62,029 nucleotides of DNA from an uncultured Myxococcales bacterium (GTDB taxonomy: Bacteria; Myxococcota_A; Polyangia; Fen-1088), in the NCBI GenBank assembly GCA_964491125.1, contig CAZBFJ010000002.1:1-62029 (forward strand), written 5' to 3'. A model generated the notes under the pieces. It was not told the origin of the DNA. It did no database searches and saw only the letters and a program-made list of their open reading frames with translations. Shown piece after piece: positions 54,680 to 62,029 of the stretch. Within the stretch, counting starts at the first letter, position 1. Each line of letters begins with the position of its first letter. A program made the translations under genes and the position numbers.

Positions 54680-56038
54680 TCACGCCCTCCCGGCCATGAG
54701 GCGCTTGACGACGGGCGAGAGCGCGAGCAAGCCGAGGCCGGCGGTGAACGTCGATACCACGAACATCAGGAAGAAGTCGGCCTGGCCGCCGAGCACCCGG
54801 AAGAAGTGCCCCTGCTCGACCTTCTCGACGGTCCCGGCCAGGAGACCGGCCGAGAGGTCGGCGACGAACATGGCGAGGAACCAGGCGCCCATCGCCAGCG
54901 AGGCGAAGCGCTTGGGCGCGAGCTTGGTGACCATGGACAGGCCGATGGGCGAGAGGCACAGCTCGCCGCAGGTGTGGAGCACGTAGGTCACGATGAGCCA
55001 CAGCGGGCTCACCCGGATACCTCCGTCGGAGAGGCGCGCCCCCACCACGAGCACGATGAAGCCCGACCCGAGGAGGAACAAGCCGAGCGCGAAGCGCACC
55101 GGGGTGCTCGGCGCCCAGCCCCGGGTCTCGAGCCGCGTCCACATCCACGCGAACACCGGCGCGAGCGTGATGACCGCGATCGGATTGACGGACTGGAAGT
55201 AGGGCGCGAGAAACACGATGCCGAGGAAGTCGCGGCGGGTGCGCTCCTCCGCGAAGAAGGTCATGGACGAGCCGGCCTGTTCGAAGGCCATCCAGAAGAA
55301 GATGTTGAAGAAGGCCAGGATGGCGATGGCGGCGAGGCCCTGCTTCTCGAGCGAGGTCAGCGGCTGCTTGATGGCGGGCTGGTCGGCCGCGAGGCGGCGG
55401 CTCGCCGGCAGGTCGCCGATCGAGCCGAGGAAGCGCCGCTTGAGGAGCAGGTAGACGATGAGGCCGAGCACCATGCCGAAGCCCGCGGCGGAGAACCCGA
55501 TGTGCCAGTTGTAGCGGTAGGCGAGCTTCGGGCAGACGATCTGGCCGATGGCCGCGCCGAGATTGATGCCCATGTAGAAAATCGTGAAGGCGGCGTCCCG
55601 GCGCCGGTCGCCCTCGCTGTAGAGCTGGCCGACCATGGTCGAGATGTTCGACTTGAAGAAGCCGGTGCCGACGATGATGAGCCCGAGGCCCAGGAAGAAG
55701 GTCGACTGCGCCGGGATGGCCAGGCAGAAATGCCCCGAGGCGATGACGATGCCGCCGATGATGATCGACCGGTGCGTGCCGAGGAAGCGATCGGCGAGGT
55801 AGCCGCCGAGGAGTGGCGTCAGGTAGACGAGGCCCTGGTACCAGCCGTAGAGGTGGCTCGCCTGCTCCTTGCTCCAACCGAAGCCGCCGGTGGTGCTGAT
55901 GAGGAACAGGGTGAGGAAGGCCCGCATCCCGTAGTACGAGAAGCGCTCCCACATCTCGACGCCGAACAGCAGGAACAAGCCAGGCGGCTGCCGGGCCGGA
56001 TTGACCGAGGCTGGGGCGGTCGCGGGCTCGCGCTGCAT
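54680..56038 (-). CDS. Proton-dependent oligopeptide transporter (POT/PTR2 family)
   Basis: FGVEMWERFSYYGMRAFLTLFL and GGYLADRFLG are the PTR2 signatures. Confidence 0.9.
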   Translation of the reverse strand: MQREPATAPASVNPARQPPGLFLLFGVEMWERFSYYGMRAFLTLFLISTTGGFGWSKEQASHLYGWYQGLVYLTPLLGGYLADRFLGTHRSIIIGGIVIASGHFCLAIPAQSTFFLGLGLIIVGTGFFKSNISTMVGQLYSEGDRRRDAAFTIFYMGINLGAAIGQIVCPKLAYRYNWHIGFSAAGFGMVLGLIVYLLLKRRFLGSIGDLPASRRLAADQPAIKQPLTSLEKQGLAAIAILAFFNIFFWMAFEQAGSSMTFFAEERTRRDFLGIVFLAPYFQSVNPIAVITLAPVFAWMWTRLETRGWAPSTPVRFALGLFLLGSGFIVLVVGARLSDGGIRVSPLWLIVTYVLHTCGELCLSPIGLSMVTKLAPKRFASLAMGAWFLAMFVADLSAGLLAGTVEKVEQGHFFRVLGGQADFFLMFVVSTFTAGLGLLALSPVVKRLMAGRA

Positions 56039-56137
56039 CCCCGCGACGATTCAACGCCGAAGGGCGTTTTGCAATGCGCTTTTTCGTCCCCGCCACCCGC
56101 CCCCGCAGAAGCCGAGCGCCGCTCTGCTGCAACCAAT

Positions 56138-56297
56138 CTAAGGCACCCCGAAGAGCGCGCGGGAGAAGAGGCCCGTGCCGAGGCTCGCCGCGTTCGCCAG
56201 GAGCGCCCACGCCCAGGCGCGGCGACGGCGAAACAGCACGGCGAAGTAGGCGCTCTCCACGGCGACCGCGAAGATCTCGGCCACCACCGTGAGCCAC
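56138..56297. repeat. 160-bp direct repeat, copy A (partner 61568-61727)
   Basis: Base-by-base comparison gives 159/160 identity in the same orientation. The single C/T difference is at 56147/61577. Confidence 0.95.
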
Positions 56298-56347
56298 GCT
56301 CGTTTGGCCCCAAGGGCAAAAGTGATGATGGCTGCGCCGTCGGTCAT
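56138..56347 (-). pseudogene. Displaced 3' fragment of the small membrane-protein gene (copy of 61568-61727) fused to unrelated 5' sequence
   Basis: The last 52 codons plus stop match the intact gene at 61568-61897 at 159/160 nt. The first 17 codons (MTDGAAIITFALGAKRA) are unrelated. No RBS is visible. Confidence 0.6.
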
Positions 56348-56468
56348 GGCTCGTACGAGCTATGAACCGGGACACGAGCTCCGCGTCTAGTGATTTTGTG
56401 ACGCCGCGGCCCGGGGCGCGTCTCCCTGCGCGAGCGCGACCTGGCCCGCGATGAGGTGCGGCCACGGC

Positions 56469-56557
56469 AGGTCAGTTCAGCAAGTCCCCATCCTCACCAG
56501 CAGAGTGCGTGGGCGGAGGGCGCGCCGGGCGTGCGGGACGGAGCTTGGGCGGCTCGG
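56469..56557. repeat. 89-bp direct repeat, copy A (partner 61479-61567)
   Basis: 88/89 identity in the same orientation (T/C difference at 56506/61516). Confidence 0.95.
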
Positions 56558-56586
56558 TGGGCAGGCCCATGGCCGACAGAATTCTC

Positions 56587-56677
56587 TTGCCCAGCCCCGG
56601 TCAGCCTCCCCCTGGTTCCCTCCCATCCTCCCATCCTCCCTGTTCATCCCGTCACGCAAGGCGCGCGCTCACCGCGT
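56587..56677 (-). repeat. Purine-rich E element, copy 1 (purine strand is minus)
   Basis: The minus strand reads TGACGGGATGAACAGGGAGGATGGGAGGATGGGAGGG...GAGGCTGACCGGGGCTGGGCAA. It is co-linear with copy 4, including a 7-codon dehydrogenase gene tail. Confidence 0.85.
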
Positions 56678-56727
56678 TCAGGCCGGCGCTATTGCGGCAG
56701 CTCTGGTTCTCGGGCAACGTGGCCGCC

Positions 56728-58269
56728 ATGGGGCGATGCAAGGACGGCTCCCCGTCTTCCGGTCTCGACCGCCGTGCGTTTCTCGGCCTGACGGCAACGG
56801 GGGCCGCGGGCCTGGCGCTGCCGGGGTGCGGTGGGCTGGGACCGGCCGCGCCGGCCGCGCCACCCAATGTTCTCTTCGTGCTTCCCGACCAGCTGCGCGC
56901 GAACGTGTGCGGCGTCTACGGCGGACGGAACATCACCACGCCGAACATCGACCGCCTGGCGACGGAGGGCGTGGTGTTCACCAATTCGGTGTCGACCACT
57001 CCGCTATGTACGCCCTACCGCGGGATGCTGCAGACTGGGCGCTACCCCACCCATTCCGGGATCATCATCAACTTCGTCGAGGCCAGTCCGGCGCAGAACC
57101 CCCACTGCCTGGCGGACGTGTTCGGTGCCGCCGGCTACGCGACGGGATACATCGGCAAGTGGCATCTGGCCGCCGGCGTGAACAAGGACGCCCGCTTCGG
57201 CGGCGGCCACGCGCGTTGTACCGAGCCCGTCGATCCCGAGTACGACTTCGTCGCTCCCGGGCCGCGACGACTGGGCTACCAGCACTGGCAGGCCTACAAC
57301 TTCCACTACAAGTACCACGACTACTGGTACTACGAGGACGAGCCGGAGAAGCGCTACTCCGATCGGTACGAAACCGATACCGAGACCGACCAGGCCATGG
57401 CCTTCATGGAGCGGTGCCGGCAGTCCGGGCGTCCGTTCTTCGTGACCGTCGCTCCGCACCCTCCGCATCCACCCTTCGCCCCCGCGTACGCCCCGGCGGG
57501 CTATCTGGAACGCACGCCGCCGACGCCATGGTGGCCGCCCAACGTTCCCGCCGACTATCCCCGCACCGACGAAGAGCTGCGCTGCTACCTGGCCATGATC
57601 CAGAACGTGGACGACAACCTCGGCCGGCTGCTCGACTATCTGGACGCGTCGGGCTTGGCCAGAAACACCATCGTGGTCTTCACGTCCGATCATGGCGAGA
57701 TGCTCGGCAGCCAGGGACGCATCCAGAAGATGGTGCCCTACGCCGAGTCCATCGACGTTCCGCTGGTCATGCGCTGGCCCAGGCGAATCACGCCGGGCGC
57801 CCGGGTCGACGCCCTGCAGACCCCCATCGACCACTTCCCCACGCTGTGCGGACTGGCGGGCTTGCCGGTTCCGAGCGAGGTCGACGGCGTGGACCTGAGC
57901 GACATCGTGACCGGCCGGCATCCTGGCGAGCGCGAGGAAGTACTGCTCGCACACTACAGCTCCGGCGAGCTGTCGTTCGCGACCGGCACCACCTGGCCCG
58001 AGTGGCGCGGCGTCCGGACCAAGCAGCACACCTACGTGCGTTGGCTCACCGGAGCGGAGGAGCTCTACGACAACCTGGCGGATCCGTACCAGATGACGAA
58101 CCTGGCCGGAAATGGCGCCGAGCCGGAAACGCTGCTGCGCCTGCGCGGCCGCCTCGCGGATTTGCTCTCGGCCGCGCACGACGACTTCCGGCCGGGCACG
58201 GATTACAGCGACTGGTACGACGATTGTCGCAACCTGCTCCGCACCGCGCTCGGGCCGGTGCCCGGTTGA
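56728..58269 (+). CDS. Cys-type sulfatase, Tat-signal lipoprotein
   Basis: Twin-arginine signal DRRAFLGL with lipobox LPGC. Sulfatase N-terminus VLFVLPDQLRA and the FGly motif LCTPYRG (CxPxR). Confidence 0.9.
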   Translation: MGRCKDGSPSSGLDRRAFLGLTATGAAGLALPGCGGLGPAAPAAPPNVLFVLPDQLRANVCGVYGGRNITTPNIDRLATEGVVFTNSVSTTPLCTPYRGMLQTGRYPTHSGIIINFVEASPAQNPHCLADVFGAAGYATGYIGKWHLAAGVNKDARFGGGHARCTEPVDPEYDFVAPGPRRLGYQHWQAYNFHYKYHDYWYYEDEPEKRYSDRYETDTETDQAMAFMERCRQSGRPFFVTVAPHPPHPPFAPAYAPAGYLERTPPTPWWPPNVPADYPRTDEELRCYLAMIQNVDDNLGRLLDYLDASGLARNTIVVFTSDHGEMLGSQGRIQKMVPYAESIDVPLVMRWPRRITPGARVDALQTPIDHFPTLCGLAGLPVPSEVDGVDLSDIVTGRHPGEREEVLLAHYSSGELSFATGTTWPEWRGVRTKQHTYVRWLTGAEELYDNLADPYQMTNLAGNGAEPETLLRLRGRLADLLSAAHDDFRPGTDYSDWYDDCRNLLRTALGPVPG

Positions 58270-58286
58270 CGGGCCGGAGGCGCCAG

Positions 58287-58341
58287 CCCTTTCAAGGTGT
58301 CGAAGGCCACGAGGGATGGAAGAACAGGGAGAAACGGAGGG
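58287..58341 (+). repeat. Purine-rich E element, copy 2 (purine strand is plus)
   Basis: CCCTTTCAAGG...GGATGGAAGAACAGGGAGAAACGGAGGG lies immediately 5' of GTGCGAC. It is inverted relative to copy 3. Confidence 0.7.
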
Positions 58342-59520
58342 TGCGACCAGGCAAGAAGTGCCCACCGAGGCGGGTCGCGCAGCAAGGGACGACCGGAGCG
58401 GCGACCGAAGAAGGCGAGACGTCGGAGGGCCGAATAGTAGCGGTGACGACGGGGAACGACCGGCAATCGGACCCGGCTGAGCGAAGGCGGCCCGTGTCGA
58501 GATGAGCCTCAGGAGGGAACCATGGGCAACGCGAAGACGTTGCAGGACGTGTTACCGAAACTAATGAGGGTAGCGGAGAGAGCGAAACGGGAACCCGAAG
58601 CCCGGATACTCTCGCTCGCGCACCTGGTGGACGTGGACCTGATGAAGGAGGCGTACCGGCGCATCCGCAAGGGAGCGGCGGTGGGCGTCGACGGCGTGAC
58701 CAAGGAGCAGTACGGGAGGCAGCTCGAGGACAACCTCCGGCGGCTGCACACGCGGATGCGGGAGGGGCGATACCGCCACCAGCCGATCCGTCGGGTGCAT
58801 ATCCCGAAGGCACCCGGGAAGACGCGGCCGATCGGGATCTCGACCATCGAGGACAAAGTCGTGCAGAACGCGCTGACGATGGTGCTGGAGATACTGTACG
58901 AGCCGGTCTTCCTGGACTGCTCGTACGGCTTCCGGCCCGGGAGGAGCGCGCACGATGCGCTGCGGACCGTGAACGCGGCGTGCATGCGGGGCGAGGTGAG
59001 CTGGGTGCTGGAGGCGGACATCGAGTCCTTCTTCGACAGCATCGACCGCAAGAAGCTGATGGAGAAGCTCCGGCAGCGGGTGAACGACGAGGACTTCGCA
59101 CGCCTCGTCGGCAAGTGCCTCCACGTGGGAGTGCTCGACGGCGCGGAATACACCGAGCCGGACGTGGGAACGGCACAAGGGTCGGCGCTGTCGCCGATGC
59201 TCGGCAACATCTACCTGCACCACGTGCTCGACGTGTGGCTCGACCGACAGGTGCGGCCGCAGCTACGAGGCAAAACCTGCCTCGTGCGTTACGCGGACGA
59301 CCTGGTCATCGGCTTCGAACGACGCGAAGACGCCGAGATGGTGATGGCGATGTTGCACGCGCGGATGGCAGCGTGCGGTCTGCGTCTGCACCCGGAGAAG
59401 ACCCGGCTCGTGCCCTTCGACCGGCCGGCACCACGGCAGGACGGAGGCAAGGGACCGGGGACCTTCGACTTTCTGGGCTTCACGCTGTTGTGGCGGAAGA
59501 CCCGGAACGGACCCTGGGCT
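58341..59520 (+). mobile_element. Group II intron remnant (5' GUGCG end, shortened 5' RNA part, RT ORF lacking the thumb/X domain and domains V-VI)
   Basis: GTGCGAC at 58341 matches the group II 5' consensus GUGYG. Only ~180 nt precede the RT ATG. RT homology ends near 59520. Confidence 0.6.
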
Positions 59521-59715
59521 ACCCGACAAGGGAGGGATCCAGGGGAGAGCAGGCTGCTATCCCCCTCTCCCTCCGTCCTCTGTTCCCTCCCTTCCTCCCT
59601 GTTCATCCTCCGGCTCCGCCTGACCGCTCAGGACCTTGAAAGGGGTGGCCGGGGCCCTATCGCGCCGTTTGGTCAGCGCGCTACCCCGGCGGCGCTGCCT
59701 GCCCCTCCGTCTTGA
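58522..59715 (+). CDS. Group II intron-type reverse transcriptase, C-terminally truncated (likely non-functional)
   Basis: RT0-RT7 motifs are present: GAAVGVDGVT, IPKAPGKTRPIGISTIEDKVVQ, YGFRPGRSAHDAL, EADIESFFDSI, GTAQGSALSPMLGNIYL, RYADDLVIGF, LHPEKT and FDFLGFT. After ..WRKTRNGPW the frame runs into repeat E3 and the antisense of the anSME 3' end. Confidence 0.75.
   Translation: MGNAKTLQDVLPKLMRVAERAKREPEARILSLAHLVDVDLMKEAYRRIRKGAAVGVDGVTKEQYGRQLEDNLRRLHTRMREGRYRHQPIRRVHIPKAPGKTRPIGISTIEDKVVQNALTMVLEILYEPVFLDCSYGFRPGRSAHDALRTVNAACMRGEVSWVLEADIESFFDSIDRKKLMEKLRQRVNDEDFARLVGKCLHVGVLDGAEYTEPDVGTAQGSALSPMLGNIYLHHVLDVWLDRQVRPQLRGKTCLVRYADDLVIGFERREDAEMVMAMLHARMAACGLRLHPEKTRLVPFDRPAPRQDGGKGPGTFDFLGFTLLWRKTRNGPWATRQGRDPGESRLLSPSPSVLCSLPSSLFILRLRLTAQDLERGGRGPIAPFGQRATPAALPAPPS
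59561..59645 (-). repeat. Purine-rich E element, copy 3 (purine strand is minus)
   Basis: The minus strand reads CCCCTTTCAAGG...GGATGAACAGGGAGGAAGGGAGGGAACAGAGGACGGAGGGAGAGGGGG. Confidence 0.8.
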
Positions 59716-60805
59716 GCTCCTCGGCCAGGCGCTCGAGGCGCGGAAGCGCGTGGGCGTAGAAGGCCTTCCAGCCCTCGCACAGGACGCTGCCCGCTCGGCC
59801 GTCGCCGCCGGCGCGGCGAAACTTCGGGCAGTCGCCGTGACAAAGCGGCAGCCACGGACAGGAACGGCACTCGTCGTCCCAGGCCGCCTTGCGCAGCCCG
59901 AACCGCCGATAGAGCGGCGAGGCGAGGAGCTCCTTCCAGCTCCCACGCCCGATGTCGCCAAGCCGCCACTCGTCGCGGACGAAGAAGTCGCAGGGGTAGA
60001 TGCCGCCGTCGTGCTCGACGACGAAGTACTGGCGACAGTCCGTTCCCATGGTGCAAGCATTGCGCCTGCCCGTGACCAGGTACTCGAGAAGGGAATCGAA
60101 CAGGCGGATCGACACCCGACGCACGTCGCCGGCCACCCACTGATCGAAGATCTCGCAGAGGAAGCGCCCCCATGCCGCTCCGGACACCGAATACGGCAGA
60201 AGCTGCCCGCGGTCGTCGAATTCCACGCAGGGGACGTATTGCTGGTGGAACAGGCCGTGGTTCTTGAAGTAGCCGTAGATCTGCCGCGGCTGCTTGACCG
60301 TCCGGTCGTTCACCAGCGCGAGAACGTTGACGTCGACGCCGCGCCTGCGCAGCCGGTCGATGCCCTTCCGCACCAGCGCGTGGGTCGGTTGGCCGGCGGT
60401 GGTCTTGCGATAATGGTCGTGCACCTGGGCTGGCCCGTCGAGGCTGACCCCGCAAAGGAACTTGTATTCGGCGAAGAAGGCCGCGAGCTCGTCCGTGATC
60501 AAGGTGCCGTTGGTCTGGAAGCCGTTGCACACGACAGCGCCCGGCGGGGCGTGGCGCCGCTCGAGCTCGACCGCCTTCTCGAAGAACGGCAGGCCCATCA
60601 AGCCGGGCTCGCCGCCCTGCCAGCTGAAGGTGTAGGCCACCGTCTGGCGGGACCCCATGTAGCTGGCGATCACCCGCTCCAGGGTTTCGTAGGTCATCCG
60701 TGGATGCGCCGAGGTCGACGCCCGCCGGCCCAGATAGAAGCAGTAGGCACAGCGCAGATTGCAGTCCGCCGCCGAGGGTTTGATGAGCAGAGAGAAGTCA
60801 CTCAT
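59681..60805 (-). CDS. Radical SAM / SPASM anaerobic sulfatase-maturating enzyme (anSME)
   Basis: The CNLRCAYCF radical SAM cluster motif and C-terminal SPASM cysteines (CRSCPWLPLCHGDCP). It is convergent with the sulfatase gene. Confidence 0.88.
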   Translation of the reverse strand: MSDFSLLIKPSAADCNLRCAYCFYLGRRASTSAHPRMTYETLERVIASYMGSRQTVAYTFSWQGGEPGLMGLPFFEKAVELERRHAPPGAVVCNGFQTNGTLITDELAAFFAEYKFLCGVSLDGPAQVHDHYRKTTAGQPTHALVRKGIDRLRRRGVDVNVLALVNDRTVKQPRQIYGYFKNHGLFHQQYVPCVEFDDRGQLLPYSVSGAAWGRFLCEIFDQWVAGDVRRVSIRLFDSLLEYLVTGRRNACTMGTDCRQYFVVEHDGGIYPCDFFVRDEWRLGDIGRGSWKELLASPLYRRFGLRKAAWDDECRSCPWLPLCHGDCPKFRRAGGDGRAGSVLCEGWKAFYAHALPRLERLAEELKTEGQAAPPG

Positions 60806-60837
60806 GAAGCGGCCCCCGCGGCGATCTGAGCATTGTG

Positions 60838-60937
60838 TTGGCCAGCCCCGGCCAGCCTCTGCCCTCGCTTCCTCGCTTCCTCCCCTCCTCCCCTTCCTCC
60901 CTGTTCATCCCGTCACGCAAGGCGTGCGATCACCGCG
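60838..60937 (-). repeat. Purine-rich E element, copy 4 (purine strand is minus)
   Basis: The minus strand reads TGACGGGATGAACAGGGAGGAAGGGGAGGAGGGGAGGAAGCGAGGAAGCGAGGG...GAGGCTGGCCGGGGCTGGCCAA. It ends ~30 nt before the anSME ATG. Confidence 0.85.
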
Positions 60938-61314
60938 TCCGCGAATTCGAGCGTGCGCAGCGAGCCACCGAGATCGCGCGTCTTCTCCCCCTCCCGGAGC
61001 GCGCGATCATAGCCGGCCCGGATGCGCCCGGCGGCGGCGCGACAGGCCTCGTCCTTGCGGGACTCGGCCAGGTAGTTGAGCATCATCACGGCGCTCATGA
61101 GCAACGCCAGCGGATTGGCCAGGCCCTGCCCCGCGATGTCCGGCGCCGAGCCGTGCACCGCCTCGAACACCGCGCCTGCCTCGCCGATGTTGGCGCCCGG
61201 CGACACCCCGAGACCGCCGACCAGGCCCGCGCAGAGGTCCGAAACAATGTCGCCGTAGAGATTCTCGCAAAGCAAGATGTGGCCATAGTCATTTCGAAGT
61301 GGTTTTGTGCGCAT
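60913..61314 (-). pseudogene. 3' fragment of an isocitrate/isopropylmalate dehydrogenase-family gene
   Basis: Only the C-terminal ~125 aa are present (ENLYGDIVSDLCAGLVGGLGVSPGANIG...FEAVHGSAPDIAGQGLANPLALLMSAVMML). The N-terminal two thirds are absent, and the 5' junction (~61262-61310) is unusually AT-rich. Confidence 0.8.
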
Positions 61315-61478
61315 CGGAGAACCTTGGTGGAACGCGGCATCAGGGCATCAGGACCACGGCCGCATGCACGGAGGGCGCAGGCCGGGGTTTTCTCGGGGGT
61401 TCTCGGGTCTGACGAAGGTCTGACGAGGGTGTCTGGAACACTCTCGGCAGTCTACCCCCATCCCGCCTGGTCAACGCG

Positions 61479-61567
61479 AGGTCAGTTCAGCAAGTCCCCA
61501 TCCTCACCAGCAGAGCGCGTGGGCGGAGGGCGCGCCGGGCGTGCGGGACGGAGCTTGGGCGGCTCGG
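61479..61567. repeat. 89-bp direct repeat, copy B
   Basis: See the partner at 56469-56557. This copy directly abuts the 160-bp repeat. Confidence 0.95.
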
Positions 61568-61727
61568 CTAAGGCACTCCGAAGAGCGCGCGGGAGAAGAG
61601 GCCCGTGCCGAGGCTCGCCGCGTTCGCCAGGAGCGCCCACGCCCAGGCGCGGCGACGGCGAAACAGCACGGCGAAGTAGGCGCTCTCCACGGCGACCGCG
61701 AAGATCTCGGCCACCACCGTGAGCCAC
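61568..61727. repeat. 160-bp direct repeat, copy B
   Basis: See the partner at 56138-56297. This copy forms the 3' end of the intact ORF 61568-61897. Confidence 0.95.
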
Positions 61728-61897
61728 CCGTGGGAGAGCGGCAGCAACGGGAAGAGCACGAACCAGACGATGGGGTGCGTGAGGGCGCTGGCCCCGAAGG
61801 CGGCCGGGATGGTGGCGCGCAGCCCGACCGCGTAGATGGGCACCTCCACCAGCTGGGTGAAGACGAAGGCCGCGAGCCAGGCCTCGAGGTAGTCCAT
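61568..61897 (-). CDS. Small hydrophobic membrane protein (unknown function)
   Basis: 109 codons with three to four hydrophobic helices. Its 3' third is duplicated at 56138-56297. Confidence 0.6.
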   Translation of the reverse strand: MDYLEAWLAAFVFTQLVEVPIYAVGLRATIPAAFGASALTHPIVWFVLFPLLPLSHGWLTVVAEIFAVAVESAYFAVLFRRRRAWAWALLANAASLGTGLFSRALFGVP

Positions 61898-61971
61898 CGG
61901 GGCCTAGCCCGTCCTGAGCCAGTCTGTTCTCGTGTTTCCGTCGATGGGTCGGTCCTCGCGAAGAATGCGGG

Positions 61972-62029
61972 CTAGCGGCGGCGGCGGGCGAAGAGGAACA
62001 GCAAGGAGAACGAGGCGGCCAGCAGCCAC
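61972..62029 (-). CDS. 3' end of a CDS running off the window (hydrophobic helix plus RRRR C-terminus)
   Basis: The minus strand reads ..WLLAASFSLLFLFARRRR-stop. This resembles the TM-plus-arginine end of MYXO-CTERM/PEP-CTERM-type sorting tails. Only 18 codons are visible. Confidence 0.3.
   Translation of the reverse strand, partial: WLLAASFSLLFLFARRRR

Follow-up and report, generated by a model that had tools for sequence, protein, structure and literature searches.

A probable dead group II intron copy in one arm of a palindromic repeat downstream of a sulfatase gene in an uncultured Myxococcales bacterium

Positions 1 to 62,029 of contig CAZBFJ010000002.1 (assembly GCA_964491125.1), a stretch of 62,029 nucleotides (nt) from an uncultured Myxococcales bacterium referred to here as the window, have a G+C content of 69% and include a reverse transcriptase (RT) open reading frame (ORF) beside a sulfatase gene. 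The segment in which this frame begins (58341-59527) is very probably a dead copy of an endonuclease (En)-less group II intron, seated in a palindromic repeat that was its target and reduced by two internal deletions. An earlier note, made from the letters of this DNA, had placed a truncated group II intron-type RT between the sulfatase gene and the gene of its maturase, bracketed by inverted copies of a purine-rich element, E. The placement is borne out: the sulfatase gene (+ strand, ending at 58269) and a radical-SAM/SPASM anaerobic sulfatase-maturase gene (- strand, 59681-60805) converge on a spacer of 1.4 kb that is occupied by the ORF. The intron remnant is co-oriented with the sulfatase gene and starts 72 nt past its stop codon.

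The remnant is recognized by comparison with complete introns. The closest complete copy lies at locus L001, where an intron of 2021 nt (307-2327) starts with GTGCGACC... and ends with ...GGGCTACCCGAC. In a blastn comparison this locus aligns to the window in three pieces, all collinear and in the same orientation: window 58274-58355 matches L001 240-321 (5′ flank and first 15 intron bases), window 58353-59518 matches L001 743-1908 (1166 nt, 96.9% identity), and window 59512-59549 matches L001 2312-2349 (last intron bases and 3′ flank). The remnant is also 86-94% identical to four other complete copies, and the identity to complete introns runs across coding and non-coding parts. Base-by-base inspection revealed a 3-nt microhomology at each of the two junctions, AAG at 58355/58356 and GGG at ~59518/59519. 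The first deletion (424 nt, L001 322-745) took domains I-III, with the loop of exon-binding site 1 (EBS1) and the whole match to the Rfam ribozyme model RF02005, which in L001 occupies 384-610. The second (410 nt, L001 1909-2318) took codons 333-441 of the intron-encoded protein (IEP), domain V and the 5′ half of domain VI. The lengths balance, as 2021 - 424 - 410 leaves the 1187 nt found.

Both ends of the intron are kept. GTGCG at 58341 agrees with the 5′ consensus GUGYG and ...CCGAC at 59527 with a 3′ AY, both are identical to the ends of full-length relatives, and the last 9-16 intron nt (..GGGCTACCCGAC) are still present. The 3′ end is set at the point where RF00029 stops matching the relatives, after CCGAC. 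The heptamer GTGCGAC, read in the earlier note as a group II 5′ end, is not significant alone (six occurrences in the window against ~20 expected); its authenticity follows from the 15-nt identity at 58341-58355 with the start of the relatives' introns.

The interior of the ribozyme has largely gone. No Rfam group II model reaches its gathering score in the window and none matches at E<=10 in 56000-62029, where only chance miRNA-like matches on the palindrome appear. RF02005 and the other D1-D4 models are absent from the window, as is RF00029, while the same models match the relatives, and the earlier suspicion that domains V and VI are missing is thereby upheld. With domains I-III, the maturase region, domain V and half of domain VI deleted, the copy has neither catalytic core nor maturase, which marks it as non-functional; such a remnant should be able neither to splice nor to move. 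By this comparison the fragment appears to be a dead copy with two simple internal deletions, not a scramble or an end truncation. The observation that only ~180 nt precede the ORF is correct, and this shortness results from the 424-nt deletion of domains I-III, just as the 410-nt deletion explains why the RT ends after WRKTRNGPW. Calling the RT and its intron truncated was right for the maturase and thumb but not for the 3′ end, which is retained.

An independently decayed intron copy, recovered from two assemblies, is found at L141 (4649-6479) and also at L142. It carries a deletion of ~245 nt in domain I and a premature stop in the C-terminal region (AACTAATTC for AACTACTTC), giving a 378-amino-acid (aa) product. 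This decay fits the published prevalence of truncated or inactivated copies, as most bacterial group II intron copies are in such a state and located in mobile DNA (PMC4424553).

The full-length relatives show what the remnant has lost. A protein search returned thousands of them, the closest of which (90-96% aa identity) are uniformly 441 aa long. Several sources name these proteins group II intron RT/maturase; they lack an endonuclease domain and lie mostly on contigs of ~2.0-2.4 kb (a few are longer), as is typical of a collapsed repeat. At these loci the ORF is preceded by RF02005 (group-II-D1D4-6; D1-D4), with D1-D4 scores of 95-156 bits, and closely followed by RF00029 (domains V and VI). 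The nearest relatives come from Myxococcota-like bins (Polyangiaceae, Myxococcales and 'uncultured delta proteobacterium'). A scan of genome contigs with the full protein gave seven loci, namely three copies in one 'delta proteobacterium' metagenome-assembled genome, one in a Myxococcales bin and a few distant ones, which is too few for a census. Plasmid introns of Halomonas, Rhizobium and Bradyrhizobium also carry RF02005 and encode proteins with 43-45% aa identity. On the Bradyrhizobium japonicum plasmid pUSDA123-3 (L147, 74493-78131) two group II introns stand back to back: an RF02005-type intron with its ltrA comes first, and within ~80 nt of it begins an RF02003-type ribozyme, accompanied by another ltrA.

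The sequences on either side of the remnant belong to a single palindrome. Its outer inverted repeat pairs 58282-58298 with 59633-59649 (17 nt, 94%; GCCAGCCCTTTCAAGGT with ACCTTGAAAGGGGTGGC) and its inner one pairs 58318-58341 with 59585-59608 (24 nt, 88%). The 11-mer CCCTTTCAAGG, previously noted at 58287 and inverted at 59634, was found again at these two positions and at no other. With the intron taken out, the exons (58282-58340 + 59528-59649) make up 181 nt that fold as one extended hairpin (-103.7 kcal/mol, z = -6.2). An intron-free version of this element occurs at L054, beside a ComF-like gene. This homologue measures ~258 nt, shares the terminal repeats (GGCAGCCCTTTCAAGG...) and has a folding z-score of -8.4; identity to the window is 93% for the left arm (58284-58340) and 89% for the right arm (59554-59647, 94 nt). 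Because the joined exons fold as a hairpin and have an intron-free homologue, the sequences named E2 and E3 in the earlier note are one palindrome split by the intron. The inverted sequences are real, but they are the arms of this palindrome rather than separate E copies. The left arm (58282-58340) is also 84% identical to the 5′ flank of the intron in L001, where the full intron sits at the identical position of the same left arm, beside an unrelated gene. Left and right arms can be told apart and each is conserved as such in the window, L054 and L001.

At the closest related sulfatase/maturase locus, L146 (maturase 91% aa identity, DNA 89-92%), window 58282-59649 is missing entirely, and cutting that stretch from the window restores collinearity. 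Since the palindrome is absent from an otherwise collinear locus, it constitutes an insertion/deletion polymorphism, as expected of an element resembling miniature inverted-repeat transposable elements (MITEs). Terminal inverted repeats, small non-coding size, presence/absence polymorphism and copies in unrelated contexts are all found. No clear target-site duplication was seen at the locus and no transposase was seen either, in analyses that included no search aimed at one. Rfam returned no known RNA family for 14 loci with E-like hairpins, nor for the palindrome of the window. A metagenome scan with the arm motif GAACAGGGAGRAWSGGAGG gave at least 123 matches; among the matches listed, not one has an intron after it, and ~19 are part of hairpins that include an inverted partner.

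Related repeats were met along the way. A palindromic family of ~150 nt (L030, L055, L064, L067, L091, L096, L115) has terminal repeats of the form ~CCAATGCCGGTCACTTAAGG, inner arms GAACAGGGAGRAACGGAGGAACGGAG and a conserved central segment CCGGAGAATGATGGGTTTCC.AC.ACTTCAAGCCACC. Its members often lie just after stop codons, on contigs of 66-72% G+C, and have no Rfam match; L144 is a member occupied by an intron. Just outside the left end of E, the motif ATGGGAACCCTG(A/G)G(A/C)GG is present in L001 (145-250) and L054 (810-835) and absent from the window. L001 has two occurrences separated by 78 nt, one of them a small palindrome; the motif may represent a different repeat or belong to a longer form of the element.

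The choice of the left arm is illuminated by covariation between the intron and its exon. The EBS1 region forms the loop of a conserved domain I hairpin, ~226-236 nt into the intron, and varies together with the last six or seven exon bases (intron-binding site 1, IBS1) in five intron variants, with compensatory changes on both sides. EBS1 CCTCTG goes with IBS1 CGGAGG, the exon sequence of the window, in L001 and L144; ACTCTG with CGGAGT in L150-L152; TCTCTG with CAGAGA in L153; CGTGTTC with GAACACG in L002 and L017; and CGTGAG with CTCACG in the L005 group. In most copies, though not in all, the +1 A could find a pairing partner in a T on the 5′ side of EBS1. Such compensatory changes are the signature of EBS1-IBS1 recognition. 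The EBS1 of the window copy is itself deleted, and its exon CGGAGG fits the EBS1 of the closest full copies; on these pairings the purine-rich arm is a genuine homing site.

The flanks of other full-length relatives agree with this pattern. The intron of L144 lies in a palindrome of ~150 nt that shares its inner arm motif with the window element, and those of L150-L152 lie in purine-rich arm motifs, with a pyrimidine-rich inverted partner 130-230 nt downstream in L150 and L151. In L153 the intron follows a purine-rich motif, and its 3′ flank, at 24 nt, does not reach far enough to reveal a partner. More distant subfamilies occupy palindromes with arms of CACGAA-like or CTCACG-like words. Full-length relatives are indeed associated with E-like sequence, as in L001, L144 and L150-L152, and the proposal that E was the insertion target is sustained by the intron of L001 at the same arm site, by the empty homologues and by the covariation of EBS1 with the exon. 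In the subfamily at 86-89% identity (L004-L013, L141, L145), conservation across many contigs reaches beyond the intron for ~95 nt on the 5′ side and ~87 nt on the 3′ side. Some of these 5′ flanks begin with CCCTTTAGGGTG, like the CCCTTTCAAGGTG of the window. The closing letters of the 3′ flank, ...TTACCCGACAAG, look like another intron 3′ end and could be a relic of an earlier intron copy.

In En-less introns such as RmInt1 and those of class C, EBS/IBS pairing selects the DNA site into which the protein-bound intron RNA inserts itself by reverse splicing, and a nascent strand at a replication fork then primes the synthesis of cDNA (PMC4424553, PMC5894124). By this route a full intron of 2021 nt (RF02005 and RF00029 ribozyme, 441-aa RT/maturase) would have retrohomed into the left arm of E, in sense to and downstream of the sulfatase gene, between ...ACGGAGG and AA of the purine-rich arm. 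The target would have been chosen by pairing of the EBS1 loop (CCTCTG) with the last six exon bases (CGGAGG). The palindrome would have offered a multi-copy, non-essential and probably transcribed intergenic host site, and transcription reading through from the sulfatase gene could have supplied the intron RNA. The two deletions at 3-nt microhomologies (424 nt and 410 nt) could have come about once the intron was in place, through replication slippage, or in the course of its insertion, through a template switch by the RT, two routes that the data do not separate.

A different order of events, in which a palindrome already carrying the intron was mobilized as a composite into the sulfatase/maturase spacer, is rather unlikely, although neither palindrome nor intron is present at L146, the same site is occupied in two of the three palindromes of the window subtype, and in the L005-type subfamily ~95 nt of 5′ and ~87 nt of 3′ flank accompany the intron on many contigs. 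Intron-free palindromes do exist (L054 and, among the matches listed, ~19 other motif hairpins), the covariation of EBS1 with IBS1 shows that homing is guided by base pairing, and neither a clear target-site duplication at the locus nor a transposase, for which no specific search was made, was seen. Joint arrival bears on the order of events only and leaves the identity of the element as it is.

It is very improbable that the two deletions are artefacts of assembling a multi-copy repeat in a metagenome-assembled genome, with a full intron at the real locus. To judge by the sources of its nearest relatives, the window itself probably derives from a metagenome bin, and the relatives typically lie on isolated contigs of ~2 kb, a sign that the repeat is hard for assemblers. 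Yet the 3-nt junction microhomologies are far below any assembly k-mer, the kept sequence has private substitutions, and two separate assemblies (L141, L142) each yielded the independently decayed copy, whose deletion is a different one.

The earlier note had also raised the option that an intron was scrambled when inverted E copies recombined. In this reading the intron would have been inverted or scrambled, with an internal fragment left between the recombining repeats. The fragment is flanked by inverted E sequences, and the surrounding 5-kb block is otherwise rearranged, with direct repeats and a truncated dehydrogenase gene. The kept segments, however, all follow the order and orientation of the full intron. 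Its true termini both adjoin the exon sequences found beside them in L001, and each gap is a plain deletion that shows 3-nt microhomology and does not end in E sequence. L054 has the same inverted arms as an intact intron-free palindrome. With a collinear remnant, both termini kept and two simple deletions, scrambling has next to no probability.

The ORF carries the marks of the IEP of a group II intron that has been cut short. Its residues 94-322 match Pfam RVT_1 (E 1e-35), and NCBIfam TIGR04416, 'group II intron RT/maturase', covers it over profile positions 3-277 of 353 with 307.6 bits (cutoff 300), whereas the full-length relative P0003 spans positions 3-352. These matches confirm the RT motifs, YADD among them, that had been read in the ORF at 58522, and the loss of RT likeness reported near 59520 agrees with the point at which nucleotide homology to full-length introns stops, 59518. 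The thumb/X domain is missing as described, with the profile covered only to 277 and codons 333-441 deleted. RT codons 1-332 contain neither stops nor frameshifts and the aa identity to the 441-aa proteins P0002 and P0003 is 96-97%; residues 333-397 come from translation of the last intron bases, of the palindrome and, in antisense, of the 3′ end of the maturase gene. The RT frame that is still open is a relic of the dead intron, and an exact look-up found no other contig on record that encodes an identical product. On the window branch, 9 of the 11 synonymous changes are from A/T to G/C at third codon positions (58522-59518), which is consistent with drift towards the 69% G+C of the host.

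That the ORF is instead a free-standing, naturally thumb-less RT (group II-like, retron, defence-associated or Abi type) deserves scarcely any credence: its 332 intact RT codons with YADD, weak matches to Drt3a, retron and AbiA models and mostly synonymous window-branch substitutions could be read in this way, but it scores above the TIGR04416 cutoff while all defence and retron models stay far below their own, the DNA matches a complete intron at 96.9% identity, with untranslated ribozyme parts and the splice ends at either side among the matching sequence, its close relatives all have 441 aa and ribozyme domains, no second contig carries the truncated product, and its C-terminal tail of ~65 aa is read-through of repeat DNA.

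Several points weigh against the interpretation as a dead intron copy homed into a palindrome, or leave parts of it less secure. The palindromes of exactly the window subtype number three (window, L001, L054), and occupancy statistics are thin. The duplication flanking the palindrome is imperfect, at ~8/10 nt (GGCCGGAGGC / GGCCGGGGCC), which makes transposition of the palindrome no more than a possibility. The block in the window is rearranged and L146 may be paralogous rather than orthologous. A complementarity search for EBS2/IBS2 found no covarying block. Pfam GIIM misses the C-terminal region even in the full-length protein, and the label 'thumb/maturase' for this region is based on TIGR04416 profile coverage and on position. 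Matches in the Protein Data Bank (PDB) are equally good to IIA, IIB and IIC proteins and do not discriminate between classes; the intron may belong to D, E, F or another En-less lineage. Literature searches found no mapping of RF02005 to an intron class, and a calibration of this model on the class D remnant of pRmeGR4b gave no match within the first 50 kb. Finally, the substitutions on the window branch (11 synonymous, 5 non-synonymous, compared with 9 and 5 on the L001 branch) give no sign of relaxed constraint; the decay is therefore recent relative to the 3% divergence, or the changes are too few to tell.

Known systems resemble this arrangement in part. As in RmInt1 and RmInt2 of Sinorhizobium meliloti, the IEP consists of RT and maturase without an endonuclease domain and is of similar size, with 441 aa compared with 419 aa for the RmInt IEP. 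RmInt1 and RmInt2 are En-less class D introns that home into insertion sequence (IS) elements, RmInt2 into IS inverted repeats, their targets being ISRm2011-2 and the inverted repeats of ISRm17 (PMC5894124). The intron considered here likewise has its homing site in a multi-copy mobile or repeated element and, as with FRE652 of the RmInt system, many fragmented or decayed copies persist (PMC5894124). The host element differs, being a short non-coding palindrome rather than an IS with a transposase, and the window copy is internally deleted with both ends kept, not truncated from one side. The protein identity to rhizobial plasmid introns is only 43-45%.

Class C (IIC) introns insert after intrinsic terminator stem-loops or into integron attC sites (PMC4424553). 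They too are small, En-less, intergenic, usually downstream of genes and tied to DNA hairpins or imperfect inverted repeats (PMC4424553). However, they insert just after the stem-loop and recognize its shape, whereas the present intron lies inside an arm, ~30 nt from the apex, and has an EBS1/IBS1 pairing of 6-7 bp that covaries with the exon. Its ribozyme is of the RF02005 type, and its best PDB matches are not preferentially IIC. The palindrome itself shares with ERIC/IRU, Correia and other MITE-like repeats, as generally known, a size of 150-250 nt, a non-coding intergenic nature, terminal inverted repeats, long hairpin potential and presence/absence polymorphism between related loci. It differs from them in having no Rfam family and in its strand-asymmetric arms, one purine-rich and one pyrimidine-rich, built of short words such as GAACAGGGAGG and AACGGAGG. 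A literature search for group II introns in MITEs, repetitive extragenic palindromes (REPs) or myxobacterial repeats yielded only a table entry for Pseudomonas putida, in which 2 of 9 intron copies are REP-associated.

A decayed group II intron in the homing site of a repeat element is an ordinary phenomenon, a common fate of bacterial introns that calls for no new mechanism. What is modestly novel is the target, a family of strand-asymmetric, MITE-like palindromes that has no Rfam entry, together with the apparent co-diversification of EBS1 with host-specific repeat words. A broader view, held tentatively, is that an En-less lineage (RF02005-type, 441 aa), present mainly in Myxococcota-like and other high-GC soil bacteria, specializes in homing into one arm of MITE-like palindromes, that its EBS1 co-diversifies with the repeat words of each host (GGAGG-, CACGAA- and CTCACG-rich), and that these palindromes may form an undescribed superfamily of repeats serving as an intron safe haven. 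For annotation, the ORF should be recorded as a group II intron remnant (pseudogene) rather than as a reverse transcriptase gene, and the flanking 'E' sequences as one split palindromic repeat. The empty site, the full intron and the two independently decayed copies form a natural series which, with the five EBS1/IBS1 pairs, suggests how an En-less lineage retargets to host-specific repeats and then decays by internal deletion. Such a series may be of use in the study of intron population dynamics and in the choice of retargetable En-less introns.

Table 1. Positions in the window of the intron remnant, the palindrome that it splits and the related purine-rich cores.
Feature	Position	Strand	Remarks
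Left arm of E palindrome; 5′ exon, upstream half of the homing site	58282-58340	+	outer GCCAGCCCTTTCAAGGT, inner ...GAACAGGGAGAAACGGAGG; IBS1 = CGGAGG
Group II intron remnant, 1187 nt	58341-59527	+	2021 nt in L001; both termini kept, two internal deletions
First 15 intron nt	58341-58355	+	GTGCGACCAGGCAAG; identical to first 15 nt of relatives' introns
Stretch before ORF	58356-58521	+	= L001 746-911, collinear, 96.9%; end of ribozyme 5′ part and start of domain IV
Present ORF	58522-59715	+	397 aa; RT domain and ~65 unrelated residues (333-397)
IEP codons 1-332	58522-59518	+	RT motifs 0-7, YADD intact; RVT_1, TIGR04416; 96-97% aa to P0002/P0003
Last 9 intron nt	59519-59527	+	CTACCCGAC; domain VI 3′ strand, 3′ splice end
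Rest of palindrome; 3′ exon	59528-59649	+	inner left arm AAGGGAGGGATCCAGGGGAGAG, apex ~59550-59560, right arm ending ACCTTGAAAGGGGTGGC
E1, solo purine-rich core, unoccupied	56578-56677	-	81% to 60829-60938
E4, solo purine-rich core, unoccupied	60829-60938	-	between dehydrogenase fragment and sulfatase-maturase gene

The features around the ORF and beyond the palindrome can be added briefly. A Shine-Dalgarno sequence, GGAGG, precedes the ATG of the ORF in 58356-58521, and promoter and terminator consensus scans of 58100-59800 gave nothing informative. The E-core 15-mer CCTCCCTGTTCATCC is exact at E1, E3 and E4 and inverted with two mismatches at E2; at three or fewer mismatches it has eight matches compared with 1.9 expected, confined to 56.6-60.9 kb. 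E1 and E4 share only the purine-rich core of ~40 nt and have no inverted partner. E1 duplicates E4 in part, and the final ~25 nt of the isocitrate dehydrogenase gene fall within it. E4 is positioned inside an 89% alignment to L146, where an E1-like stretch also matches.

The sulfatase/maturase block of ~5 kb is edged by direct repeats, 56138-56297 equalling 61568-61727 (99%) and 56469-56557 equalling 61479-61567 (99%), the first of which (56138-56297) is the 3′ part of a small membrane-protein gene. Beside the maturase gene, an isocitrate/isopropylmalate dehydrogenase gene is present only as a C-terminal fragment of 133 aa, where L146 has the full 341-aa gene. This fragment and the neighbouring repeats fall in window 56138-56557, 61474-61727 and 60913-61314, with their counterpart at L146 6877-11856, and window 61276-61381 matches L146 11759-11856, which there lies beyond the sulfatase. 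With its direct repeats, the block looks like a duplicated or transposed copy of a sulfatase/maturase block.

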